A DNA stretch of 64,000 bases from Candidatus Eiseniibacteriota bacterium (GTDB lineage: Bacteria > Orphanbacterota > Orphanbacteria > Orphanbacterales > Orphanbacteraceae), in assembly GCA_029262235.1 (NCBI GenBank), contig JAJCZU010000004.1:771330-835329 (forward strand), in the 5' to 3' direction. The translations under genes and the position numbers were made by a program. Within the stretch, counting starts at the first letter, position 1, and each line of letters begins with the position of its first letter. The notes below the pieces were generated by a model that was not told where the DNA came from, did not search any database, and saw only the letters and a program-made list of their open reading frames with translations. Below are positions 34,704-48,630 of this stretch, piece by piece.

Positions 34704-36593
34704 TCAGTGAAAGTCGACGAGGAACGATCGGCTCTCGAACGGGCGCAGTTCCTCCACGTTCAGTACGAGCGCGTCATTCTCACGCTCATACGTGTAGCTC
34801 GGCGCGTTGAACCCGATGACAGACGGCGTCACCGTGATCTTGCCGGGCGAGCGCGGGAGATACGTGCGCAGGTTGATCGCGGGAATCGGCTTGTCGTATT
34901 CGCTCGAAACATAGAGCCCGAGGCGATTCGGTCCGAGCACTTCGGTCCGGAAGCGCACGCCGTCACGCGCCTCCCACCAGTTCGCCACGTCTCCTCCGGT
35001 CGCGATCCACACTCTCTTCGAGCGCATGTAATTCACGAGCTTCGGGATCACGTCTTCCACGCCCTGCTTCGTCAGCAGATGTGTGTGAAACGACAGAAAA
35101 TAGATCGTACCCATGCGGTAGTGCGCGAGGAACGACGTCTTGTACGCTTCGATTACGGCGCGCGGGTCCTTGAGATCCTGCGTAACGAGGAGTTCGTAGT
35201 CGTCGACGCCGACGCGCGGAATTTCGACGATGCGATTCGACTTCGAGCGCTTCCATGCCGTGCCGCCGCGCGCGATGGTGTGAATCGCGGGCACGGCAGA
35301 GGACGCCTCGAATCCGCCCACCATATAACGGTAGCCGGCGTGGGCAAGCGCGCGAATCGTCTCTTCGTCATACTTTTCCTCGGGCGGCCGAAACCCCACG
35401 CACGCCTGCCCCGTGATCTCCTCGAGATCGGCTTTCGTACGCGTGATGCGCGCGAGCTGCTTTTCATACTGCACGCCGCCGAGCGGTGAGTGGTCGTCCG
35501 AATGCGACCCGATTTCGCCGACGGCCGCAAGCCGCGTGGTAAGGGCCTCGTGATCGCGGGCGAGATCGGACACGCAGAAAAACGTTACGGGAACGTCGAG
35601 TTCGGTGAAAATGCGCTGCGTTTCTTCGGACGCCTGATAGAACGATTCGGTGTCCTGCGCGAAGATGACGGCCGAGCGCCGGCCCTCGGGCCACGTGTCG
35701 ATCGCAGCCACCGGGCGCCGGGCGACCCAGTCGACCGCGTTCGTTGCGAGCCGCGCCGGAACGTTAGCGGTTTGTTCTTTCGTATGAAACGCCGTGAGGG
35801 GCATGCCGAACCAGACGAAACGGCCGTCGCCCGCGCTTGTGTGGAGCGCGAACGAGTAAGGCCCGCGGTCGGCTTCCGGCTCCAGGTCGACGAACTGACG
35901 CGCGCGGTCTGTGTAATAGCCGTCCGCCCAGTCGACGTTGTATGCGGCGAGTGCGAGTTTCCCGTCGAGCGCGCCGAGGATCGTTCCCTCCGGAATGCCG
36001 GCGGTTACGGGGGAGTGTCCGGAGGTCGAAACGAACCACGGCTTGACGCCGTCCGGAAGCGACGGAGAATCCGTGATCCTGCCGTTCGAGAAGCGTTCGA
36101 TCATTTCGTAGCCGACCCACTCGCCCTTCTCGTCGCGCGCGCCCGTGTACCAGCTCGCGACTACGCCGCCGCCTGCCGCGAGATACTCGTCGATCCGTTC
36201 GCGCTCGAGCGCCGTGAGAGATATCGCGGCGGGCAGAACGAGCGCGTCGAAGCCCGCGCTCCGCGAAGCCGTCCATGACTCCAGCTCGCTGTCGGAAATC
36301 TTGACGACCGACGCGCCGGCGTCGGCAAGCCACTGCGCCCAGACTTCGGCCAGCGATTCGCCCATCGGCAGATCCGTCTTCGCGAGATAGTCACGAGAAT
36401 GCTTCGAGTCGAGCACGGCAACGCGCGCCGGATCCTCGTCGAGAAATCCCTGCCCGTCCATTGTGAAATAGCCGAACACGTTGCGCAGCAGCAGCAGATA
36501 GATCAGCACGCCGGAAGCGATCACGATCACGGCGAACAGAAGCATGTAGGCTTTCAGAAGCCATGGGGAAGAAATGCGCCCGGGCAATCCCAT
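34704..36593 (-). CDS. Membrane-anchored polysaccharide deacetylase (CE4 / NodB domain; PgaB/IcaB-like) with an additional N-terminal domain
   Basis: N-terminal TM segment. NodB motifs 'AVIFAQDTESFY' and 'IGSHSDDH'. It is the last gene of the operon and directly abuts the small membrane gene. Confidence 0.65.
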   Translation of the reverse strand: MGLPGRISSPWLLKAYMLLFAVIVIASGVLIYLLLLRNVFGYFTMDGQGFLDEDPARVAVLDSKHSRDYLAKTDLPMGESLAEVWAQWLADAGASVVKISDSELESWTASRSAGFDALVLPAAISLTALERERIDEYLAAGGGVVASWYTGARDEKGEWVGYEMIERFSNGRITDSPSLPDGVKPWFVSTSGHSPVTAGIPEGTILGALDGKLALAAYNVDWADGYYTDRARQFVDLEPEADRGPYSFALHTSAGDGRFVWFGMPLTAFHTKEQTANVPARLATNAVDWVARRPVAAIDTWPEGRRSAVIFAQDTESFYQASEETQRIFTELDVPVTFFCVSDLARDHEALTTRLAAVGEIGSHSDDHSPLGGVQYEKQLARITRTKADLEEITGQACVGFRPPEEKYDEETIRALAHAGYRYMVGGFEASSAVPAIHTIARGGTAWKRSKSNRIVEIPRVGVDDYELLVTQDLKDPRAVIEAYKTSFLAHYRMGTIYFLSFHTHLLTKQGVEDVIPKLVNYMRSKRVWIATGGDVANWWEARDGVRFRTEVLGPNRLGLYVSSEYDKPIPAINLRTYLPRSPGKITVTPSVIGFNAPSYTYERENDALVLNVEELRPFESRSFLVDFH

Positions 36594-36860
36594 CTACGCG
36601 TCCCCTTCGCGATCATGTGACGCGCCGTGATCGTGCGACACGCCCTGCGCGCGCGGCCCGCTGGGAGCGCGCGAGCCGCCTTGATCCGAGGATCCGTCAT
36701 GCACGTACTTCACGAAGAAGCGGCGCTCCATCGTCTTCATTGCGGGCGCCGGCGCCTTCGCCTCGCGCATCTTGTACACGAGAAACGAGCCGGCCGCCAT
36801 GATGATGGTCACGATCGTGGCGATCAGAATGATCGTGGAAAGCAGCGGGATCAGATTCAT
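36594..36860 (-). CDS. Small membrane protein (IcaD/PgaD-like accessory subunit candidate)
   Basis: 88 aa with one TM segment (LIPLLSTIILIATIVTIIMAAGSFLVY), positioned between the synthase and the deacetylase exactly as icaD is. Confidence 0.45.
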   Translation of the reverse strand: MNLIPLLSTIILIATIVTIIMAAGSFLVYKMREAKAPAPAMKTMERRFFVKYVHDGSSDQGGSRAPSGPRAQGVSHDHGASHDREGDA

Positions 36861-36872
36861 GCGAGCCTCCGA

Positions 36873-38195
36873 TCAGATCCGTCCGAGACGGTCCAGTTTG
36901 CCCCAGCCCATTTCGAGCCCGAGCGTCTCTTCGACGAGTCCGTACACTTTGTAGAAGTCGATGACGAGAATGAAAAAGACGCGATACAAAACCGCGTAGC
37001 CGACAAGGCCGAGGTCCTCGTTCTCCATGACCATGCAGTGCATGGCGGCGGCGATGTCGAGCAGCGTGAGCTGCACCCACCAGAGAACGAGCAGATACGA
37101 AAGGCCGTGCACCGCGCCGATGTAGATCAGGAAGAAGTTCGCGGCGATGTTCATGACCGGCCAGAGAATGCCTTCGAATGCCATGTAGGCGGCCGTGAAC
37201 GGGACCGTGAAGTCGCCCTTTTCGACGCGCGTGAAGATCTTCCTGTGCTTCTTGATCGACTGCAGAATGCCGCGCGTCCATCGATACCGCTGCTTCACGA
37301 GATCGAGCAGCGCTTCGGGCGCTTCGGTCCACGCGATCGATCCCGGTTCGTACGTGATGTGCCAGCCCTGCTTGAGGATCTTGAGCGTCAGGTCGCAGTC
37401 TTCGGCGAACGTGTCCGAATCGTAGAGTCCGACATCGACCACCACGTCGCGGCGAAAGAGGCCGAGCGGGCCCGGTACGATGTTGACCGATCGAAAATAC
37501 GCCTGCGCCTTGCGGACGAGGTTCAGTCCCTGAATGTATTCGAGCGCCTGCAGTTTCGCGTAGAGGTTGTCGCGGTTCGACACTTTGACATTGCCGGCGA
37601 CTGCGGCAATGCGTGTGTCGCGAAAGTGGCGGGCGGCGAGCCGGATCGCGTCGGGTTCGAGTTTCGAATCGGAGTCGATGCACGCGATGATCTGCCCCTC
37701 GGCGCGCATGATCCCGTAGTTCAGGGCCTCGGCCTTCCCCTGGTTCGGCTTCGTGAACACGCGGACGCGGCGGTGCCCGTAGTCGCCTTCCCACACTTTC
37801 GCGCGCGCATACGTGTCGTCGGTCGAGCCGTCGTCGATCACGATCACTTCGTAGTTCGGGTAGTTCTGTTCGAGCAGCGAACCGAGCGAGGCGTCGATCA
37901 TGATCCCTTCATTGTAGGCGGGCACCATGATCGAAACGAACGGCGTGTGCGGTTCGTCAGAAATCTGACTGTCTTCGATCTGCTGCAGATAGGAAAACCA
38001 GAGAAGGCAGAAGTAGCGCAGCACGAGCGTCCCGAGAAATCCGAGAAAAAGTACGACCACGGATTGGACGAGCGCGTTCGGGATCGGAATTCTGGACTTT
38101 ACGACCGAAAGGTAGATCCCGAACGAACCGCCGACGAGCAGCACGGACGAGGCGATGAAGACCGACACGTACTTCTGAAACTTGCCGCGCGTCAT
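36873..38195 (-). CDS. Processive family-2 beta-glycosyltransferase (PgaC/IcaA/NodC-like; poly-beta-1,6-GlcNAc-synthase-like)
   Basis: 'SIMVPAYNEG', 'VIDDGSTDDT', 'DSDS', 'FAEDCDL' (TED) and 'QRYRWTRG' (QxxRW), with 2 N-terminal and 3 C-terminal TM segments. 440 aa. ATG at 38195 overlaps the porin stop (ATGA). Confidence 0.75.
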   Translation of the reverse strand: MTRGKFQKYVSVFIASSVLLVGGSFGIYLSVVKSRIPIPNALVQSVVVLFLGFLGTLVLRYFCLLWFSYLQQIEDSQISDEPHTPFVSIMVPAYNEGIMIDASLGSLLEQNYPNYEVIVIDDGSTDDTYARAKVWEGDYGHRRVRVFTKPNQGKAEALNYGIMRAEGQIIACIDSDSKLEPDAIRLAARHFRDTRIAAVAGNVKVSNRDNLYAKLQALEYIQGLNLVRKAQAYFRSVNIVPGPLGLFRRDVVVDVGLYDSDTFAEDCDLTLKILKQGWHITYEPGSIAWTEAPEALLDLVKQRYRWTRGILQSIKKHRKIFTRVEKGDFTVPFTAAYMAFEGILWPVMNIAANFFLIYIGAVHGLSYLLVLWWVQLTLLDIAAAMHCMVMENEDLGLVGYAVLYRVFFILVIDFYKVYGLVEETLGLEMGWGKLDRLGRI

Positions 38196-40084
38196 GAGCC
38201 GTGTCCCAGGGTGAGGCCCGCGCGCCAGGATGTGAGTTCGTAGGAGCCGCCCGCGCGAAACACGCGCGAGTGAAAGAAGCCCGTGCCGAGCGCGACGCGG
38301 TTCGACAGCATGTACGAGAAGCTTGCGGTCACGTCGGCGGCGGTGCCCGTCTCTACTTCGGTGGAGCGGCCGAGAAGCGCTTCGCACTCGAGCGACATGC
38401 TTTCGCGCCAGAGCGAAACGTGCACGCCGCCCTTATGGCTGCGATGCTCGGCGGGACTCCAGTAGAGGTCGGACTCGCCTGTGTACGAGAGATACGTTCC
38501 GCGATACTCGACCGCGACGCGCGGAGAATCGCGGAGCGCCCAGGAGAGCTTCCAGGCGGCGTCGAAACTTTCGTTCTCGTCAGACAGCGTTGTGCGGCGA
38601 AGCGAAGAGCCCGCGCGGAGCGGACCGTCCGGCATCCATTGCATGGCCGCGCGATACGCGGTGCCGTGCAGCGGGGCGTCGCCTACCGCGCGAACCGAGA
38701 GCGCCCGTTCGGGCATGTCGAAGCGTTCGGCTGCGGCATCGAATCGCCAGCGAATGCCGCGCAAGTACTCGACACGCGCTTCTTCTTCGTGCGTGGTGCC
38801 CGCTCCCTCGTATGCGTTCAAGCGCACGGTGCCATGCAGCGAAACCCCGTCGCGCCAGAGCCAGCTGCCGTTTGCCCCGATCCGGTCGACCGCGACCGAT
38901 TCGTCGTTCTGGTTCATGAGAAGGCGTTCGTAACGGCCGCTCGCGCTCCATGCTTCGTCGAACTTCTGCCCCAGATCCAGGGCGAGGGACGACGAACGAA
39001 ACGACTCTGAGTCCTGCGTGTGCCGGTACTCGGGCGTCGATGCGAGAGGACGGTCGCGTTCGCCTGCGTTCCAGTCGAATCCGTTCTGCAATGTCGAACG
39101 CCGGGCCCAGTCGCGGCGCCCTTCCCACTGATAGAGGTCCGCGATCCGTTTCGCCGGGCGCGCGTCTCCCGGCGAGCGGCGCTGCACCGCGCGGTACCGG
39201 TCGAACGCCGCGCGATTCCTGCCCTGCGAAACGAGAATGTCCGCATAGGCGAGTTCGGCCGAGTCGAGTGCGGCGGTATTCGCGCGGTCTTCTGCGTCAC
39301 GTGGCCGGCCCGTGACGCGCGCCTGATTCGCGACCCGCGCCTCTTCCGCGTCACGCGCCTCGTGCCATTGCGCGCGACGCTTTGACGTCTCGGTGGAAAC
39401 CCACGCGCGCGTGCCTCGCTCTGCCTCTTTCCGTGCCTCGTGCAGGCGGCCATCGGCGTCCGCCACGCCTGCGGCGAGCAGTGAGTCGGTGAACCGGCGC
39501 GCGTCATAGTAGCGTTCGGCGCTGACAAGGGCTTCGGCATAGTGCGCCTGCGCCAGTGCGGCCGCGCGATCTGTGTCCGCGAGCTCATCGTTTTGAGCCG
39601 CCGCGAGCGAGCGCTTCGCGAGCAGCACGCCGTACTGAGGATTCGCGCGAAGCTCGCGCATGCCTTCTATCGCCCGCGTTTCGTTTTCGTCCATGGCGAG
39701 CGCGGCGTGGTAACTGCGTTCGGCGGCTTCGACATCGCCTGTCCACCGTTGAAGGTCGCCCGCCGCGCCGAGGGCCGCGGCCGAATGCGCGTTGCGTTCT
39801 TCGAGAAGTGTGATCCCTGCTGCCGGCTCTCCGCTCCAGCCGAGAACCAGCGCCCATTCAATGACGGCGGTTTCATCGGATCGGCCCGCGCTCTTCAGTG
39901 TTTCGAGGTAGCTCTCGTAAAGCCGGGTCGACTCGTCGTAGCGCCCGTCCCACGAGCAGGCGCGGGCGTCCTGCAGAATCGCGGCGGCATCAGAGGGCGC
40001 CGGGTCAGCCGAGGGCGGCATCATCGGAAACAGGAAGAAAAGCGCAGCGTGATACGAGACCAGCAGCGTGATGGGGCCCATCAC
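38192..40084 (-). CDS. PgaA-like outer-membrane export protein: N-terminal TPR repeats plus C-terminal beta-barrel
   Basis: Signal peptide; N-terminal TPR-like helical repeats (about 300 aa); C-terminal alternating beta-strand region ending in an aromatic-rich segment. Confidence 0.55.
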   Translation of the reverse strand: MMGPITLLVSYHAALFFLFPMMPPSADPAPSDAAAILQDARACSWDGRYDESTRLYESYLETLKSAGRSDETAVIEWALVLGWSGEPAAGITLLEERNAHSAAALGAAGDLQRWTGDVEAAERSYHAALAMDENETRAIEGMRELRANPQYGVLLAKRSLAAAQNDELADTDRAAALAQAHYAEALVSAERYYDARRFTDSLLAAGVADADGRLHEARKEAERGTRAWVSTETSKRRAQWHEARDAEEARVANQARVTGRPRDAEDRANTAALDSAELAYADILVSQGRNRAAFDRYRAVQRRSPGDARPAKRIADLYQWEGRRDWARRSTLQNGFDWNAGERDRPLASTPEYRHTQDSESFRSSSLALDLGQKFDEAWSASGRYERLLMNQNDESVAVDRIGANGSWLWRDGVSLHGTVRLNAYEGAGTTHEEEARVEYLRGIRWRFDAAAERFDMPERALSVRAVGDAPLHGTAYRAAMQWMPDGPLRAGSSLRRTTLSDENESFDAAWKLSWALRDSPRVAVEYRGTYLSYTGESDLYWSPAEHRSHKGGVHVSLWRESMSLECEALLGRSTEVETGTAADVTASFSYMLSNRVALGTGFFHSRVFRAGGSYELTSWRAGLTLGHGS

Positions 40085-41715
40085 GACTCGACCATGGCCT
40101 TGGGGTCGACGGACGAAGGAGGCGAGGAGAAGGAATTGCGGAAGGCGTCGGTCAGCGAATAGAGAATCGCGTTCGTGTCGTCTCGGCCCTGAATGAGGGC
40201 CGTGGCCCAGTGGTGTGTTACGTCGGGGTTGCCCTTGAAGTGATCGATCAGATTCGTGTGAAGCCGCTCGCGAAACGCCTGAAATCCTGCTTCGTCCGAT
40301 CCGACGAGTACGATCGCGACATCGCAGCCGGAGATTCCGATCACGAGATCGTCGTTTCGGCAGCAGCGCAGCACGACTTCCGCCGCTTCCTTCGGCGCTC
40401 TGTTCGTGAGCGGATCCTCGCCATCGGGATTCTGAAAACGCGAGAGATAGGCGATCGAGGCGAGTCCCGTTTCGCGCACGAGCGCGATGAGTTCCGAGAA
40501 GCGGTCGGTCACGCGCGGCGTGAACAGGAACTCGTCGGTCTCTGTGTTGTACTCGAGCAGCTCTTCGCCGCGTTCCGCGTCCCCCATGCTTTCGGCGAAG
40601 CGCTCCGCGAAACTCTGTTCGGCCACTCCCGAGTGTACTTCGAGATTCGTGGACGGGCCGCGACGGATCAGGTTCATCACGCGATAGCGAAACTCGTCAC
40701 CGTGCAGCGGGCGTGCCACGATGTCGTCGCCACCCGAGCGAAAGCAGCGAATGCGGTCGAGCGCGCGCATGCGACGCCCGCCTACAAACAGCACCGGCGT
40801 GCGGATTCCGCTTTCGCGCATCCGCGCGCACACTTCGAACGGGGCGCTCGTTCCGTCGGCCAGTTCGATGATCGCGAGGTCGTGCGGGTCGGTGATTCCC
40901 TTCGCCACCGCCTGCATCGGTGACTCGACCGACGTAATTTCGTAGGCATCGCCGAGCGCGGTTTCGATCTCCTCGCCCTCGGGCGAGCGAAACACCATGA
41001 TGCGTCCCCCGTCCGGGATGATCGCATCGGCGTCTGCCTCGGCTCCGTTCTCATTGCCGATCCCGCCACCCTTAAGCAACGTGAACGGAATCGCCTTGCG
41101 GGGGAGCGACGCGCCGCGATACTTGCGAATGCGCAGCACGCTTCCCGGGCCCGTTGCATCTTCGATATGGAAGAGCCCGAAACAGAAGCGTTCCAGCACG
41201 CGCCATGCCGGCGTGCGCGGAATCTCCGTCGCCTCTTCTGAAAGCAGAACCGTGGCCGGCATGTCGTCGAATCCGTTCAGCAGTGCGCTGTAGAAGCCGG
41301 GGTTGTCCGTTACAGGGTAACGCGACTGCAGCAGCGACGAAAACGCCTCCACGACGACTCGCGTGCGCGACTCCGCCAGGGTTGCGATTTCGTCCACGAT
41401 GCTCTTCGCATCCCCCGTGTTCACGACGAGATCCGAGAACGACGCCGAAGGCGCAATCACGACGAGCTGATCGTCGCGCAGAAATTCCGACAGGTCGACA
41501 TCGAGCGCCTGCGCGGCGATAAACAGGTCGCGCGGACGTCCCCCCGAGATCCAGAGGCAACGCTCGCCGCGACGCAGTCCTTCCAATAGAAAGATCAGCG
41601 ACAGCTCGAGTTTCTCCGAACCGATATTGCCCGTCAGCAAATACGTACGTGTCGGCATCAGCCCGCCCGTGATCTGGTCGAGCTGGGGGAACCCCGTAGG
41701 GATTCTTTGCTGCAT
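40081..41715 (-). CDS. BcsE-like tripartite regulator: degenerate RecA/KaiC-like ATPase domain, degenerate receiver domain, and degenerate GGDEF domain with an intact RxxD I-site
   Basis: N-terminus 'GFPQLDQITGGLMPTRTYLLTGNIGSEKL' is KaiC/RadA-like but its Walker A reads GSEKL rather than GKT. The middle domain is receiver-like ('DLAIIELADG...PVLFVGG...GGDDIVARPL'), with E at the phospho-acceptor position. The C-terminal 'RNDDLVIGISGCDVAIVL' aligns to RxxD-LVARYGGDEFavll of GGDEF domains. Its stop abuts the porin start. Confidence 0.55.
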   Translation of the reverse strand: MQQRIPTGFPQLDQITGGLMPTRTYLLTGNIGSEKLELSLIFLLEGLRRGERCLWISGGRPRDLFIAAQALDVDLSEFLRDDQLVVIAPSASFSDLVVNTGDAKSIVDEIATLAESRTRVVVEAFSSLLQSRYPVTDNPGFYSALLNGFDDMPATVLLSEEATEIPRTPAWRVLERFCFGLFHIEDATGPGSVLRIRKYRGASLPRKAIPFTLLKGGGIGNENGAEADADAIIPDGGRIMVFRSPEGEEIETALGDAYEITSVESPMQAVAKGITDPHDLAIIELADGTSAPFEVCARMRESGIRTPVLFVGGRRMRALDRIRCFRSGGDDIVARPLHGDEFRYRVMNLIRRGPSTNLEVHSGVAEQSFAERFAESMGDAERGEELLEYNTETDEFLFTPRVTDRFSELIALVRETGLASIAYLSRFQNPDGEDPLTNRAPKEAAEVVLRCCRNDDLVIGISGCDVAIVLVGSDEAGFQAFRERLHTNLIDHFKGNPDVTHHWATALIQGRDDTNAILYSLTDAFRNSFSSPPSSVDPKAMVES

Positions 41716-42010
41716 TGAATATAATCCTCCGCCTTCTCTATCGAGGATCGGCAGACCTGCGCAGAATCATTCATGTTCCGCGCGGGAAAACGTTTTCGTT
41801 GGGAAATGATGCGAATTTTGTCGAAGGGGGCCAGCCCGGCGTAAGCGCGAAGAAAGCGCGCGTTTGGGTCAGGCGGGTGCAGGGAGGGTTCGTCTCGCCC
41901 GCCCGTTCCCGTGTGTTCCCAACCCCAGCGCCCGTTCACGCTGGACAGTAACGCGCCTCTGTAGGATGATCGGATCTACAACGAATCACACCCCCTTACA
42001 AGTAAACGAC

Positions 42011-43081
42011 ATGACACTTCAGCAGCGCATCCGAGCATCTTCGATCTTCCGTATTCCGTTAGCCGTGACATTCCCGTTCGCATTCCCGTTCGCACTCATG
42101 TTCGCGCTACTGGTTGCGCTTGTGATTGCTCCGCCGCGCGCGACTGCCGAACCCGTTGCCCGCGGCATGACTGTCTCCTGTCAGACGTGGGGGTGGGAGT
42201 GGGGGAGCGACGAAATGGTCGCGACGATGGCCGATCTCAAGGCGATGGGATGCAACTGGATCGCGATTCATCCGTACGCCGGGATTCGGGGCGACGGCGA
42301 AGTCGTTTCCCGCATGGTCGAACGCGGCGAAACGCCCGACTGGCTGACGCGCCCGATCGAAGAAGCCCATCGTCTCGGCCTCAAGATGATGATCAAACCG
42401 CATATCGCATACTGGGGCGGGCCGTTCTCGTGGCGCGGCGAGATCACGTTCGAAACCGACGAAGAGTGGGATCGGTTCTTCACGACTTACACCGCGTGGA
42501 TCGTCGAAGTTGCGCGCATCTGCCAGGACGCCGACGCTTTCGTTGTCGGCACAGAACTCGACCTCACGCTCGGTCACGAAGAGCAGTGGAAGCAGATCAT
42601 CGCTGACGTACGCGCCGTAACCGACGCGCCCCTGACATACGCTGCCAACTGGACCGACTACGAACGCGTGACTTTCTGGCCGCAGCTCGACGTGATCGGA
42701 ATCCAGTCGTACTTTCCGCTCGCCGACACTCTCGGCCTCCGCGAAGAGGCGAGCCTCGACTCCGCGTGGGCCTCGCTCGGCGACAGATTGCGCGCTTTCG
42801 CCGAACCCCTCGACAAACGCGTGCTGCTCACCGAGCTCGGCTACAACCGTTCGTCGAGCGCCGCATGGAAACCGTGGGAGTATCGGTCAGGTGGCGATGA
42901 TGCCGAAGAAATCCAGCGCCGCTGCATGAACGCCGCGCTCCGCGCGCTCGAAGGGAACGATCTCTTCGTCGGCGCGTTTCTATGGAAATGGTTTCCCGGT
43001 GAACAGCAGGGGAGGCGCGGCAACTTCCTTCTCTCGACGCCCACAATGCGGGGTGTGATTTCTTCGAACTGGGGGAAGTAG
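42011..43081 (+). CDS. Secreted glycoside hydrolase, clan GH-A (cellulase-like / GH5-GH113-like (beta/alpha)8 fold)
   Basis: Signal peptide; 'VLLTELGY' is a catalytic-nucleophile-type motif; 'WGWEWGSDEMVATMADLKAMGCNWIAIHPYA' is a cellulase-like N-terminus. The start (42011 vs 41966) is uncertain. Confidence 0.55.
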   Translation: MTLQQRIRASSIFRIPLAVTFPFAFPFALMFALLVALVIAPPRATAEPVARGMTVSCQTWGWEWGSDEMVATMADLKAMGCNWIAIHPYAGIRGDGEVVSRMVERGETPDWLTRPIEEAHRLGLKMMIKPHIAYWGGPFSWRGEITFETDEEWDRFFTTYTAWIVEVARICQDADAFVVGTELDLTLGHEEQWKQIIADVRAVTDAPLTYAANWTDYERVTFWPQLDVIGIQSYFPLADTLGLREEASLDSAWASLGDRLRAFAEPLDKRVLLTELGYNRSSSAAWKPWEYRSGGDDAEEIQRRCMNAALRALEGNDLFVGAFLWKWFPGEQQGRRGNFLLSTPTMRGVISSNWGK

Positions 43082-43373: not shown

Positions 43374-45410
43374 CTATCGCAGCAGGATCAGTTTCAAGCC
43401 AGTGTTCGTGTTCGCCGAAATCAGTGAGATGAAGTAGGTCCCGGCGGCGACGGCCAGCCCTTCGTCGTTGTTGCCGTCCCACTCGATGATGCGAGCTCCT
43501 TCACTCCCCCGCAATGTTCTCACGAGTCGACCACTGATATCGAACACGCGGAGTTCCGCGGGAAGTAGGAGATCGTGCGAAGGGGTGAGCAGGATATGTG
43601 CTCCGGTTCGTGTGGGGTTGGGGCCGAGCAACTGGAGCGGGCGTACGGTGAAGTCGGCGTGATCGATAACGTTTGTCGGTGTTTCGCACCCTGCTCCCCG
43701 TGCGCCGATGAGGCCGCAACCAGGGGCTGATAGGAGTGGGGAGGTGTCTTCCAGCGTGTAGTCATTCGTTGTCGTATCGCAGAAAAGGGGATCTACATGG
43801 AGATTTCCACTGGAGTCACCGATACCGGCGACGCAGCCGACCCAGTCGCCACCTGTATTGTCGAACAAGTTCGTGCACGTGACGCTCACGTTAGCCGGGT
43901 CCTGACACGAAATCGCCGGACCTGGATTCGTATTGAACGCGAGGATCGAGCGGTCGATGTCGAAATCGACATTCTCAAGATGCAAGCTCGCTTCTGTCGT
44001 CGCTGTGTTCTGGACGCAGGATACGTTGCTCAGCGTGATCGCTTTGATCATGCTTTCTCGGTTGGACAACTCTCTCCCTGCGATACCGAGCGCCCTGCCG
44101 GCCGAATCGTCGAATCGTCCGGGGCTGCTCAATTGGCCACTGAAGATCACGCTTCCGTGCGCCGCCGTATTGCCGGCGATCACGGTAGTGTCGATGGTGA
44201 TGTCTGAGCCGGCCGTAGCAATCGCGCCGCCATCTCCGGGTGTATCGTTCCCGAGAATGGTCGTATGAGTGATGTGGAAGGGGGAGCCGAAAGCATAGAG
44301 ACCTCCGCCTCCGTTCACAGCATTGTTCCCCACGAGTTTGGATCTGGTCACTTGTACATCCAGTGCGAACCATCCACCGAGAGCCCCGCCCCTGAGAGCG
44401 GAGTTCCCCTGGAGGGTGGAGTTCCGAATCGTGACGTTCGAAGCATCAGCGAGTAGCCCGCCGCCGGTAGCGCCCGATTCATTCGACTCGAACAGGCACG
44501 AGTCGAAGGTCGCGTCGGCTTCCATTACCAACACCGCCCCACCACCACCCAGAGACCACAACTCACTACCTGTCACAATGTTGCATGACATCGTGCAGGA
44601 CACGACCGAAACCTCGGTGAGCCAGAGGTACAGGCCGCCGCCGTTTCCTGCCTGATTCGAATCGATTCGGGAAGCTGTGAACGACGGATTCCCGCCAAGG
44701 GTTCCTTCCGTTTGATACCACCCCCCACCAAGCCCCGTCGCCATGTTTCCCGTGACCTTGCAGAACGACACGGTCAGATCAGTTTGTGAGTATCCTCCCG
44801 CACCGTTCGCTGCCTGATTCGCGCACACCGTGGACTGCGTCACCGTCACCTCGCCATACCGGCAGTAGATTCCGCCTCCGCGGTCCTGGGCAGCATTGCT
44901 GTCCACCACGCACGAAGTGATTCGAGGTCCCGGATTGGCGCTGCCCCAGATGGCTACACCACCTCCGTCGATGGCGGCGTTTGATCGAATCACACTATCC
45001 ATGATTCGAAGGTCGGCATTAACTGCGAATATGCCTCCGCCTGAAGTGTCGGGGGCAACCAGTGCAGTTCCGCCCGTGATCGTCAGATTCTTGACGAGTG
45101 TAGTTGTATCCGTATTCGAACAATCCAGCACGCGGCCAAGTTGCTGAGCGTCGATCACGACGGAATCGGGTGCCGCGCCTTCGCCGAGCAACACAATCCC
45201 TGACTTCATGACAATCGAATGTTCGAAGTGGGTTCCTACTCCAACGAGAACCGTGTCTCCGGCCGCTGCCGAATCGATCCCCGCCTGGATCGTGGAAACG
45301 TCACCCGAACCGTTCGACTCAACGGTCCAGACAGCTGCGCTCGCCCGGTTTACTACCAGCAGTAACCCCGCAAGGAGAATGCAGAGATAGGGCATGCGGA
45401 ACGAGAACAC
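43374..45410 (-). CDS. Secreted right-handed parallel beta-helix repeat protein with a C-terminal T9SS / FlgD-Ig-like sorting domain
   Basis: Signal peptide; many 'N..ING/GGA' beta-helix repeats; the C-terminus '...GTYFISLISANTNTGLKLILLR' fits the T9SS CTD pattern. Confidence 0.65.
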   Translation of the reverse strand: MFSFRMPYLCILLAGLLLVVNRASAAVWTVESNGSGDVSTIQAGIDSAAAGDTVLVGVGTHFEHSIVMKSGIVLLGEGAAPDSVVIDAQQLGRVLDCSNTDTTTLVKNLTITGGTALVAPDTSGGGIFAVNADLRIMDSVIRSNAAIDGGGVAIWGSANPGPRITSCVVDSNAAQDRGGGIYCRYGEVTVTQSTVCANQAANGAGGYSQTDLTVSFCKVTGNMATGLGGGWYQTEGTLGGNPSFTASRIDSNQAGNGGGLYLWLTEVSVVSCTMSCNIVTGSELWSLGGGGAVLVMEADATFDSCLFESNESGATGGGLLADASNVTIRNSTLQGNSALRGGALGGWFALDVQVTRSKLVGNNAVNGGGGLYAFGSPFHITHTTILGNDTPGDGGAIATAGSDITIDTTVIAGNTAAHGSVIFSGQLSSPGRFDDSAGRALGIAGRELSNRESMIKAITLSNVSCVQNTATTEASLHLENVDFDIDRSILAFNTNPGPAISCQDPANVSVTCTNLFDNTGGDWVGCVAGIGDSSGNLHVDPLFCDTTTNDYTLEDTSPLLSAPGCGLIGARGAGCETPTNVIDHADFTVRPLQLLGPNPTRTGAHILLTPSHDLLLPAELRVFDISGRLVRTLRGSEGARIIEWDGNNDEGLAVAAGTYFISLISANTNTGLKLILLR

Positions 45411-45586: not shown

Positions 45587-45709
45587 GGCGGTGAGACATT
45601 CCCCCGCAGTCCCGAGCCCCATTGGAGGGCCGGGGGTTCGGCGATCAGGCTTCATGTCTCATGTGAGCAGGCCCGACAGGGCGAGGGCGAGGAGGAATGT
45701 CTCACCGCC
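45587..45709. repeat. About 120-bp MITE-like repeat, copy 2, inverted relative to copy 1
   Basis: Perfect 16-bp TIRs GGCGGTGAGACATTCC and GGAATGTCTCACCGCC. The internal sequence is the reverse complement of copy-1 blocks. The stop codon of the VWA gene (45702-45704) lies inside the right TIR. Confidence 0.55.
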
Positions 45710-46799
45710 CCCGCCTCTTGCGATTCCGCAAGAAATCTACCAGCACAAAATCACCCACCTGATCCGCCGAGCTGAAGAACGCCCGCCCGCGGTTCTTCTC
45801 CGTGAGTTCCGCGATGAACTGCTCGAGGTACGGATCCTGCGCGACCATGAACGTCGTGATCACGATCCCCTTGCGCCTGCAGACGACGGCTTCGTCGAGC
45901 GTGCGGTTCACGATCATCTCGTCGAGTCCGAAGGTGTTGCGATACGTTCCCTGGCCCGGTATCTGAATCACGGTCGGCTTGCCGTCGGTGATCATGAAGA
46001 TCTGCTTGTTGGGATTCTTGCGCCGCTCGAGAAGTTTGCGCGCGAGCTGCAGTCCGGCTTTCGTGTTCGTGTGGTACGGGCCGACGGCCGTGAACGGCAG
46101 GTCCTTGATGGGCACGGGGCGCGCGTCGTCGCCGAAGAGCACGATGTCGAGCGTGTCTTTGCGGTACCGCGTCATGATGAGTTCGGTGAGCGCGAGCGCA
46201 ACCTGCTTGGCGGGCGTGAAGCGATCTTCGCCGTAGAGAATCATGCTGTGGGAGATGTCGAGCAGCAGCACGGTGGCGCAGGAGGTCGCGAACTCGGAAT
46301 CGTGCACGACGAGATCACGCTCTTCGAGCGGAACGTCGGTGTTCCCTTCGCGCCGTACGGCGTTCCACATCGACGCGTTGAAGTCGATCGCTTCGATGTC
46401 GTCGCCGAACTGAAAGTCGCGCCGCTCGGGAAGCGCCTCGTTCGTGTTGCCGCCGCCGTACGGCGTCATGTGCGCGCCCTGCCCGCCCGACTGCAGATTC
46501 TGGAAGATGCGTTCGAGCGATGATTGGCGAAGCCCCTGCACGCCCTTGTCGGTGAGCTGCATTTTACCCAGTTCGGTGCTCACGATTTCGCGATCGTTCA
46601 GCTGCTTCTGGAACGCGTCGAGGTCGACGCTTTCGTCGAGGTAGCCGCGCTGCTGCAGCTGGCGCATCATTTCCATGGCGCGCTCGGGATCGCCGTTCGA
46701 CTTGAGCAGCAGAAAATTGAACAGGTCGAGCAGCTGCTTGAAATGGCTGAGCTTCTTTAAGAGCTCGGGATCCCAGGAGCCGTAACGAAAGCCGAACAT
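45702..46799 (-). CDS. VWA (von Willebrand factor A) domain protein
   Basis: 'VLLLDISHSM' is a MIDAS DxSxS motif and 'IFMITDGKP' is vWA-like; positioned downstream of the AAA+ gene. Confidence 0.65.
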   Translation of the reverse strand: MFGFRYGSWDPELLKKLSHFKQLLDLFNFLLLKSNGDPERAMEMMRQLQQRGYLDESVDLDAFQKQLNDREIVSTELGKMQLTDKGVQGLRQSSLERIFQNLQSGGQGAHMTPYGGGNTNEALPERRDFQFGDDIEAIDFNASMWNAVRREGNTDVPLEERDLVVHDSEFATSCATVLLLDISHSMILYGEDRFTPAKQVALALTELIMTRYRKDTLDIVLFGDDARPVPIKDLPFTAVGPYHTNTKAGLQLARKLLERRKNPNKQIFMITDGKPTVIQIPGQGTYRNTFGLDEMIVNRTLDEAVVCRRKGIVITTFMVAQDPYLEQFIAELTEKNRGRAFFSSADQVGDFVLVDFLRNRKRRGR

Positions 46800-46809
46800 A
46801 ACGCGCCCC

Positions 46810-48270
46810 CTAAAGGTCGCGCATCATGCGGCTCAGCATGTCGCCGTAGCGCACGGCGCCGCCGATTCCCTCGCGCGAGAGAATCGAATGCTGGTGCATC
46901 GCCTCGAGCACGAACTCCTGCGCGGCAAGGCGCACTTCGGGCGTTTCGGGCTCGAGATAGTTGTCGACGAGTTCGTTCAGGCCGTCGATGCTCGAGAACT
47001 GCGCGGCGAGTTCGCCAGAAAACGGCAGATCCGAGACGTCGATCGTGTTCCCGGCGTTGAACCACGCCGCCACGCGCCCGTAGAGCGGCTCGGATGCGTC
47101 CGGGTGGGCCTTGTCTTCGTGCACGGACGGAAAGTACTCCTGAAAGATCGATTTCACGGCCTTGCCAATCAGGCGTTCCGCCACGATGTTCGGCCCTTCC
47201 TGCTCCCCTTCGTACACGAGTTCGAGCTTGCCCGTGATCGCGGGCAGCACGGCATAGAGATCGCTGAGCCGCGCGGTCGGGCTCGGATCGCCGTTCGCGA
47301 CCATGCGCCGTTCCACGCTGCTCGTCAAAAGCTCCAGTGCCGCGATCGCGAGTCGCGCGCTGACGCCCGAAGTCTGGTCGACGTGTTCGCTGAGGCGCGC
47401 CTGCACCGCGATCTCTTCAATCGTTTCGCGCAGAAAATCGGGCACGGTGACGGCCACGCTGCGATCGGTCGACGCTTCCTGGTCCGTGATCATCATCGCG
47501 TCCTCGAGGCTCTCGGGATAATGCGTGATGATCTGGCTCGCGATGCGGTCCTTGAGCGGCGTTATGATGTTCCCGCGGTTCGTGTAGTCCTCGGGATTCG
47601 CCGTGAACAGAAAGATCATGTCGACCGCGAGGCGAATCGGAAAGCCGCGTATCTGCAGATCACGTTCTTCGAGAAGATTCAAAAGGCCGACCTGAATGCG
47701 CGGCTGAAGATCGGGGATCTCGTTCAGACAGAAGAGGCCGCGGTTCGTGCGCGGCACGATGCCGTAATGAATCACGCGTTCGTCAGAGAGATCGAGCCGT
47801 TCGCGCGACGCCCGGATCGGGTCGATGTCGCCGATAAGATCAGCCATGCTGACGTCGGGTGTCGCGAGCTTTTCCTGATAGCGCGCGGAGCGGTGCAGCC
47901 AGGCGACGGGCGTGTCGTCGCCCGCTTCTTTCACGAGCGTGCGCGCGAAGTGCGAGGCGGGGCGAAGCGGATCATCGTTCAGGGGGGCGCCGTCGACAAC
48001 GGGCGTCCATTCGTCGAGGAACGCCGAGATCGCGCGACAGACTCTCGTCTTCGCCTGGCCGCGCAGGCCGAGCAGAAGGAGGTCGTGGCGCGAAAGAAGC
48101 GCGTTCACGATCGCGGGAATCACCGAGTCGTCGTAACCGACGATGCCGGGAAAAAGCGTGCGCTTTTCGCGGATCGCGTCGAGCAGGTTCGCGCGCACTT
48201 CGTCGCGGATGCTCCGGGATTCGTAGCCGCTCGCCTTGAGCGCGCCGAGGGTGCCTGGCTTTTGCTGCAT
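46810..48270 (-). CDS. MoxR/ChlI-like AAA+ ATPase
   Basis: Walker A 'GLRGQAKT' is the MoxR-style GxxGxAKT. The sensor / arginine-finger region 'IFLFTANPEDY...TPLKDRI' is present. The Walker B position reads 'LFCLNEI', with N in place of the usual D. The start (48270 vs 48354) is uncertain. Confidence 0.6.
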   Translation of the reverse strand: MQQKPGTLGALKASGYESRSIRDEVRANLLDAIREKRTLFPGIVGYDDSVIPAIVNALLSRHDLLLLGLRGQAKTRVCRAISAFLDEWTPVVDGAPLNDDPLRPASHFARTLVKEAGDDTPVAWLHRSARYQEKLATPDVSMADLIGDIDPIRASRERLDLSDERVIHYGIVPRTNRGLFCLNEIPDLQPRIQVGLLNLLEERDLQIRGFPIRLAVDMIFLFTANPEDYTNRGNIITPLKDRIASQIITHYPESLEDAMMITDQEASTDRSVAVTVPDFLRETIEEIAVQARLSEHVDQTSGVSARLAIAALELLTSSVERRMVANGDPSPTARLSDLYAVLPAITGKLELVYEGEQEGPNIVAERLIGKAVKSIFQEYFPSVHEDKAHPDASEPLYGRVAAWFNAGNTIDVSDLPFSGELAAQFSSIDGLNELVDNYLEPETPEVRLAAQEFVLEAMHQHSILSREGIGGAVRYGDMLSRMMRDL

Positions 48271-48630
48271 GAGCTTCCTTTTGTCGGGAACAGGGGGGAG
48301 GGGCTCGATCCATTCGAGTTCGTATATAATAGTAAGGGCTGCCCGGGGGATCAAGGCGGCGCCGGTGATTGGACCGAAGCGGGGAACGATTTGACGTGGC
48401 TCCCGATTCTCCGTATCCTGAATCTATAACGATTCTGTGAGCAACGCTCCGACCGACGATCGCCTAACGTGATGAACCATGGCGGCTTCGGCGACAGGGT
48501 CCCTCTGGAAACGGGCGGGCCTCCCGTGTTTGGAAAGGAGCGATGCGGAACCGGCTGATCAACGCGATCGGTCCGGCTGTTTCGCGTTCGCCTTTTCCTG
48601 GCTCACACCCCTCGGGGAAAAGGCGATGCC

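Follow-up and report, generated by a model that had tools for sequence, protein, structure and literature searches.

The operon and its first gene

We analysed a 64,000-nucleotide stretch of DNA from a Candidatus Eiseniibacteriota bacterium (GenBank assembly GCA_029262235.1, contig JAJCZU010000004.1, positions 771,330 to 835,329 of the forward strand), referred to here as the window and numbered from its first letter, and in it a five-gene operon whose first gene encodes a putative sensor of cyclic di-GMP (c-di-GMP), hereafter the regulator. The protein has the architecture of BcsE, the c-di-GMP receptor of cellulose secretion, and heads genes that resemble an exopolysaccharide (EPS) machine of the poly-N-acetylglucosamine (PNAG) kind. 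The original prediction, made from the letters of the window, had described it as a BcsE-type receptor with three catalytically degenerate domains, recruited to a PNAG-type operon. The genes of the operon are as follows.

40081–41715, minus strand: regulator gene, first of the operon, with a KaiC-like N-terminal domain (NTD), a degenerate receiver and a degenerate GGDEF domain (open reading frame (ORF) and its translation, 544 amino acids, ATG start)
38192–40084, minus strand: PgaA-like outer-membrane export protein (porin) of about 629 amino acids, with tetratricopeptide repeats (TPR) and a beta-barrel (weak TPR Pfam matches; PgaA profile)
36873–38195, minus strand: PgaC/IcaA-like processive synthase of glycosyltransferase family 2 (GT2), 440 amino acids (best family TIGR03937; QRYRW motif)
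36594–36860, minus strand: small single-pass membrane protein of 88 amino acids with the N-terminus MNLIPLLSTIILIATIVTII, which follows GT2 in nearly all of 80 surveyed operons
34704–36593, minus strand: membrane-anchored polysaccharide deacetylase of carbohydrate esterase family 4 (CE4), 629 amino acids, last gene of the operon (PF01522, 64.8 bits)

The regulator ORF runs from 41715 to a stop codon at 40083–40081 (544 codons), with a Shine-Dalgarno-like motif, GGAGGA, about 12 nt 5′ of the ATG. The original prediction had given the same ORF without its strand, and the motifs that it quoted (GNIGSEKL, a Glu at the phospho-Asp position, SGCDV and RNDD) are all present in the translation. The regulator stop is overlapped by the start of the porin gene (GTGATG), and the porin stop by the start of the GT2 gene (ATGA). 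The porin family profile (39 sequences) aligned with E. coli PgaA over PgaA residues 414–760, which cover the last TPRs and the porin, at an hhalign probability of 87% (E=3.7e-6), and the synthase aligned with E. coli PgaC at a probability of 100% (E=1.6e-43). These overlaps and alignments agree with the claim that the regulator gene abuts a PgaA-like porin gene in an operon with a PgaC/IcaA-like synthase; nor was bcsA, bcsB or bcsQ found among the ORFs within about 10 kb on either side of the regulator, as had also been claimed. The deacetylase, which is conserved in the survey of 80 operons, matches chitin and xylan CE4 deacetylases in the PDB, and the polymer of the operon is presumably an N-acetyl-hexosamine polymer.

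The small membrane protein matched no Pfam family. We considered it as an analogue of BcsF, whose tail LFFAKPRY docks on the NTD of BcsE, as it is single-pass and ends in a loosely similar 'FFxKY' tail. This candidate was downgraded, as the protein gives no match to PF11120 (E. coli BcsF scores 117.8 bits) and persists in operons that have no KaiC-like gene. Its N-terminus, MNLIPLLSTIILIATIVTI, is nearly unchanged between the window (36594–36860, minus strand) and two other loci (L003, 13685–13882; L008, 4855–5031), the regulators there being only 24–39% identical.

Domain structure of the regulator

The domains and motifs of the regulator, all on the minus strand, are located as follows.

41050–41715, minus strand: KaiC/RecA-like NTD, residues 1–222 (PF06745, 57.3 bits against a gathering cutoff of 26.6)
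41608–41631, minus strand: degenerate Walker A, G29-N-I-G-S-E-K-L36, with E for the Gly before K and L for S/T
40648–41010, minus strand: degenerate receiver, residues 236–356
40864–40866, minus strand: E284 in place of the phospho-acceptor Asp, in 'IIELADG' where beta3 ends, from alignment with canonical receivers and homologs
40756–40767, minus strand: second RxxD, R317-A-L-D320, at the start of alpha4 in the receiver, from family conservation
40126–40566, minus strand: degenerate GGDEF-fold domain, residues about 384–530, from family profiles and Foldseek
40348–40359, minus strand: RxxD of the primary I-site, R453-N-D-D456
40318–40332, minus strand: S462-G-C-D-V466 at the GG[D/E]EF catalytic position, from alignment with cyclases
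40264–40266, minus strand: R484, third residue of the I-site, at +28 from D456

Relatives were gathered by an exhaustive HMMER search of 1.84 billion representatives, which returned full-length proteins at 24–39% identity (P0003–P0007, P0009 and P0046) and many KaiC-receiver-X proteins of about 500 amino acids. The family alignment holds 42 homologs, one per 50%-identity cluster (pairwise identity at most 50%), and has a mean column identity of 25%. A word-indexed homolog search with the 544-residue protein returned only the protein itself and one receiver-only match, the same kind of search with the family alignment returned only generic receiver and GGDEF proteins, and a genome scan queried with the 544-residue protein gave no match. 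An AlphaFold2 model of the full-length regulator, built on the 42-sequence alignment, had a mean predicted local distance difference test (pLDDT) of 86, and a model of residues 234–544 had a pLDDT of 84.7 and a predicted template modelling score of 0.76.

The NTD matched KaiC chains of the PDB by sequence at E=4.6e-13, and when the full-length model was submitted to Foldseek the best 50 matches were all KaiC, at E of about 1e-16. Its Walker A departs from the GxxxxGK[S/T] consensus of KaiC. This degeneration, in the form GxPGxEK[LMF], is the mark of a Gemmatimonadota subclade; among 57 NTD homologs linked to operons of this type, the Walker A is intact in 25.

The second domain matched response-regulator receivers at E=2.6e-9, below the Pfam cutoff for PF00072, and has the receiver fold. 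The phospho-acceptor pocket of receivers is gone: besides E284 in place of the Asp, the acidic pair after beta1 has given way to R243-S244, the Thr/Ser to G312 and the Lys to R335. The description of the regulator as a triple pseudo-enzyme is right for this lineage but does not extend to the family, in which many members still have the Walker A intact or the receiver canonical. The same domain carries an RxxD motif that had escaped the original prediction: R317 is kept in 40 of the 42 family members, and D320 in 37, with Glu in three more. In a set gathered independently by way of the synthase gene, all 28 operon-linked homologs have R-x-x-[D/E] at this site, whereas of 33 ordinary receivers aligned here only 4 have Arg in the R317 column.

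The GGDEF assignment of the C-terminal domain needed family profiles, because a Pfam scan of the isolated C-terminal 186 amino acids as a single sequence gave nothing relevant. In the PDB, the E-values of the C-terminal profile of the family ran from 1e-14 to 1e-8 for GGDEF cyclases, with 5e-8 for PelD; the profile also matches genuine GGDEF domains of proteins without a receiver, and hhalign aligned it with canonical GGDEF (PF00990 superfamily) at a probability of 98.8%. When residues 234–544 were submitted to Foldseek, the best PDB matches were WspR, PleD and DgcR, which aligned over both domains (about 320 columns, E=1e-13 to 1e-10). Several relatives have weak GGDEF, PelD_GGDEF or GGDEF_2 matches in the C-terminal domain, one of them (P0006) above the GGDEF Pfam cutoff, and PelD_GGDEF (PF16963) matches 12 of the 42. 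In summary, the three-domain reading of the regulator, as a KaiC-like NTD followed by a receiver and a GGDEF domain, is correct.

The catalytic and the regulatory motifs of the GGDEF domain have fared differently. R453NDD-x5-SGCDV aligns column for column with RxxD-x5-GGEEF of true diguanylate cyclases; the GG[D/E]EF position is degenerate in all KaiC-linked relatives, and the upstream GTP- and Mg-binding motifs of cyclases are absent from the regulator, while R453 and D456 are invariant in all 42 family members and R484 is Arg in 39. In PleD, the I-site is made up of R390 together with RxxD, with a spacing of +28 between D362 and R390 (PMC7288161), which is also the spacing between D456 and R484. 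The conservation of the motifs is far beyond chance, since G328, R453 and D456 are the only invariant columns in the alignment, and the I-site residues (R453, D456 and R484; R317 and D320) are under strong constraint. The original claim of an intact RxxD I-site beside a degenerate GGDEF motif is supported, and the I-site is conserved across the family.

Relation to BcsE

BcsE consists of degenerate NTPase, receiver and GGDEF domains (PMC7439463, PMC11470070), and its R306ATD in the receiver and R415TGD in the GGDEF domain together clamp an intercalated c-di-GMP dimer, by which the affinity is raised from about 2.5 μM to about 140 nM (PMC11470070). The regulator has the same tripartite arrangement, as had been claimed and as Pfam, Foldseek and the profiles agree, and in hhalign R317ALD and R453NDD fall in register with R306ATD and R415TGD, respectively. 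The second RxxD, being in register with R306ATD, strengthens the analogy with BcsE. The two proteins are further alike in being cytoplasmic and in being encoded by the leader gene of an EPS operon.

We then looked for membership of the BcsE/GIL family itself. PF10995 (GIL) gave no match to the regulator at E≤1 and was not among the 25 most-matched families in a scan of the 42 relatives; no BcsE chain appeared in the PDB profile searches at E≤10, nor in the Foldseek best 50 for residues 234–544. An hhalign comparison of the family with a 108-sequence BcsE alignment was collinear over 441 columns at P=0.037 and a probability of 1.4%, and that with E. coli BcsE alone gave a probability of 0.2%. 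By domain, P was 0.05 for the NTD, 0.018 for the receiver and 0.0013 for the GGDEF domain, against 0.53 and 0.24 when the canonical receiver and GGDEF profiles were compared with BcsE; all of the per-domain and family comparisons with BcsE lay at probabilities of about 18% or below (1–18% in general, 0.2% for E. coli BcsE alone). With no PF10995 match, no PDB chain and weak hhalign scores, kinship to BcsE is at best hinted at, the hint being concentrated around the two RxxD motifs. Filing the regulator as a member of the BcsE family was rejected on the two whole-protein probabilities, and the claim that a BcsE-type receptor had been recruited was not supported; the nearest folds are KaiC and the receiver-GGDEF cyclases.

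Other differences point the same way in comparing the two systems. Unlike BcsE, the regulator has no BcsF, BcsG, BcsR or BcsQ partner, and its synthase is PgaC-like, not BcsA. The BcsE homologs returned by our search all belong to Enterobacterales where an organism name is given, whereas the family of the regulator spans Gemmatimonadota, Myxococcota, Acidobacteriota and others. In some of its members the Walker A and the receiver still look active, and its domains lie far closer to canonical KaiC, receiver and GGDEF domains than those of BcsE do. The regulator family is a widespread and undescribed one, built like BcsE and not detectably related to it by sequence.

Distribution of the operon

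The five-gene order is identical at the loci of two relatives, P0003 (39% identity) and P0006 (24% identity), and TPR/barrel genes lie downstream of P0004, P0017 and P0009, which are on short contigs. Synteny with EPS genes holds in homologs down to 24% identity, although some family members, P0005 and P0046, have no EPS genes beside them. The genes for these two are directly followed by a gene for a single-pass membrane protein of 73–89 amino acids (L005, 11709–11930; L013, 9588–9857), an arrangement like that of bcsE and bcsF.

A survey baited with the GT2 synthase yielded 80 loci from GTDB species genomes, which were scored by offline hidden Markov models. These came from Gemmatimonadota, Myxococcota, Acidobacteriota, Ignavibacteria/Bacteroidota, Campylobacterota and a few Proteobacteria, and the synthase, the small protein and the deacetylase occurred together nearly everywhere. 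Where at least 4.5 kb of upstream DNA was available, a gene with a KaiC-like NTD stood upstream in 52 of 60 loci. The 57 operon-linked NTD proteins comprised 20 with receiver and degenerate GGDEF domain, 6 with the receiver, 6 with the degenerate GGDEF domain and 25 with the NTD alone. By its gene overlaps and its neighbourhoods, the regulator is co-transcribed, translationally coupled and co-inherited with the PgaC/PgaA-like secretion machine, and the loci represent an undescribed, widespread type of EPS operon with a putative KaiC-like coupling protein.

In five Ignavibacteria/Bacteroidota loci (L032, L060, L067, L086 and L092), the KaiC-like proteins are about 400–430 amino acids long and have no receiver, and their weak GGDEF-like tail has DKKD at the site of the RxxD. 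A Gemmatimonadota subclade (e.g., L062, L073 and L077) has RxxxxD there. Some Acidobacteriota operons have a second CE4 deacetylase paralog in the opposite orientation a few kb downstream (L038, 14413–16287, minus strand; L070, 9356–11239, minus strand; L078, 10534–12372, minus strand).

Function of the regulator

We consider it probable, with moderate confidence, that the regulator is the cytoplasmic c-di-GMP-sensing subunit of a PNAG-like, synthase-dependent EPS machine, a BcsE-like dual-I-site receptor that acts post-translationally. An intercalated c-di-GMP dimer would be clamped between the RxxD motifs of the receiver and GGDEF domains, as in the dual I-site of BcsE, and the closed conformation would be passed on to the KaiC-like NTD. 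Because it is the one part that adjoins nearly every operon of the type, the NTD is likely to be the module that docks on the synthase complex or oligomerises there, and its docking would turn on polymerisation or export post-translationally. In the regulator, the NTD would be a scaffold dead for nucleotide hydrolysis, while relatives with an intact Walker A, such as P0004 and P0006, may still use ATP.

Several observations weigh against this assignment. Binding of c-di-GMP is what we infer from the conservation of the motifs. The receiver and GGDEF domains are dispensable for the operon type, as 25 of the 57 partners are NTD-only by profile search, and where they are present in part or in altered form the I-site can differ: the Ignavibacteria forms with NTD and GGDEF domain read DKKD for RxxD, and one Gemmatimonadota subclade reads RxxxxD, so that c-di-GMP sensing may have been lost or altered in these lineages. 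P0005 and P0046 do not lie beside EPS genes. As to the polymer, the synthase has TIGR03937 (PgaC_IcaA) as its best family at 209.5 bits, short of the cutoff of 422, and hhalign found no specific similarity between the deacetylase and PgaB (P=0.22) and no match between the small protein and PgaD (P=0.066), on which grounds both were rejected as homologs of these proteins. The label PNAG-type, taken from the original prediction, accordingly suits the synthase and the porin but not the CE4 deacetylase or the small protein.

The main rival to the c-di-GMP receptor reading is that of an assembly or scaffold factor independent of c-di-GMP, in which the KaiC-like NTD does the work, helping to assemble or gate the synthase-porin machine as an ATPase in relatives and as a static oligomeric scaffold here, the receiver-GGDEF tail being a relic or a binder of another nucleotide or of a partner protein. 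This would suit the presence of the NTD as the sole module beside almost all operons, the NTD-only partners, the forms with NTD and C-terminal domain that have no I-site Arg, and the intact Walker A of 25 of the 57, which suggests an ancestral ATP-dependent role. A relic, however, would not be expected to keep R453, D456 and R484 as its most conserved residues, nor R317 and D320, at about 20% identity, and the residues kept are those that contact c-di-GMP in PleD and BcsE; we therefore regard such a factor as unlikely. Improbable, too, is that the regulator is a true, highly diverged BcsE/GIL orthologue that left a cellulose operon for a PNAG-like one. The identical order of the three domains, the two RxxD motifs in register, the 441-column collinear alignment and the better scores of the family profiles than of the canonical ones against BcsE would all be accounted for in this way, but no comparison reached significance, PF10995, the PDB profiles and the Foldseek best 50 gave no match, and the family is far nearer than BcsE to canonical KaiC, receiver and GGDEF domains and is phylogenetically much broader than the BcsE homologs retrieved; the bcsF, bcsG, bcsR and bcsQ partners are missing and the direction of transfer is unsupported.

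That the regulator is an active enzyme or part of a phospho-relay, whether as a diguanylate cyclase, a KaiC-like ATPase or kinase, or a response regulator, is scarcely credible. Some relatives do have an intact Walker A and canonical receiver motifs, but the regulator has SGCDV at the catalytic position and no GTP/Mg motifs, a Walker A without its Gly and Ser/Thr, and a receiver without its acidic pair, Asp, Thr and Lys. On these motif grounds an active cyclase, kinase or response regulator was rejected, and the regulator should have neither cyclase nor KaiC-type ATPase activity, nor a receiver that can be phosphorylated. The dual-I-site receptor thus remains the reading that we prefer.

Comparison with known systems

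Receptors that use the I-site of a degenerate GGDEF domain to activate an EPS synthase are already known from PelD and BcsE, and from PssE of Listeria; what is new here is a BcsE-like dual I-site outside cellulose systems and enterobacteria. Like PelD, which binds c-di-GMP at the RxxD I-site and controls a synthase-dependent, partially deacetylated hexosamine polymer, the regulator has a dead GGDEF domain, and it would control a polymer of this kind. PelD differs in having transmembrane helices and a GAF domain and neither a KaiC-like nor a receiver domain, and Pel uses a GT4 enzyme (PelF) where the operon of the window has a GT2. PleD, WspR and DgcR, the closest folds to residues 234–544, share the I-site triad of RxxD plus Arg at +28. 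In these three the cyclase is active, with GG[D/E]EF in place and an Asp that can be phosphorylated; the regulator has lost both sites and carries a KaiC-like domain at its N-terminus.

The operon is like PgaABCD and IcaADBC in its PgaC-like GT2, its PgaA-like TPR and porin protein, its deacetylase and its small membrane subunit beside the synthase. In the PNAG system of E. coli, c-di-GMP binds directly to PgaC-PgaD, and PNAG systems are thought to sense c-di-GMP directly through this pair, whereas the operon described here has a separate soluble putative sensor. Unlike PgaD, the small protein is single-pass and unrelated, and unlike PgaB, the deacetylase is a membrane-anchored CE4 enzyme in which no GH153-like domain was detected; the gene order, with the regulator as X, is X-A-C-small-deacetylase. 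This suggests a third arrangement, of a soluble BcsE-style dual-I-site putative sensor with a KaiC-like module and a PgaC-like synthase, which is common in the poorly studied Gemmatimonadota, Myxococcota, Acidobacteriota and Ignavibacteria. In the literature searched, KaiC and PgaC occur together in no paper, and the combination of KaiC, receiver, GGDEF and I-site was found only in the BcsE paper.

The family also offers an account, open to test, of how the unusual architecture of BcsE arose. As a tentative proposal, which we rate as possible yet doubtful, enterobacterial BcsE may not have been invented for cellulose alone but may be the most diverged offshoot of an old family, found across phyla, of KaiC-like-receiver-degenerate GGDEF proteins, in which two RxxD motifs clamp dimeric c-di-GMP and synthase-dependent EPS machines are controlled in this way; the regulator would then be a much less diverged member on an unrecognised, widespread PNAG-like system, throughout which coupling would fall to the KaiC-like domain, in many lineages still an ATPase. 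The members of the family would provide less diverged, and probably better-behaved, proteins for work on the way in which a pseudo-NTPase links c-di-GMP sensing with a synthase.

Neighbouring genes

Divergent from the regulator lies a gene for a glycoside hydrolase of family GH113 (window 41864–43081, plus strand; PF22612, 134 bits), which is not found beside the operon of P0003 (L003). By analogy with BcsZ or the C-terminal domain of PgaB, its product could be a polymer-trimming hydrolase. Beyond it, a gene at 43374–45410 (minus strand) encodes a right-handed beta-helix protein of 678 amino acids. Its C-terminus is FlgD-Ig / Por_Secre_tail-like, a hint that it is sorted for type IX secretion, and it may be a further secreted protein that acts on polysaccharide. 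Further on, at 45702–48354 (minus strand), there is a pair of genes unrelated to the regulator finding, a 365-amino-acid VWA-domain protein and an adjoining uncharacterised ORF of 514 amino acids; a member of the cluster at least 90% identical to the former is named 'VWA domain-containing protein'.

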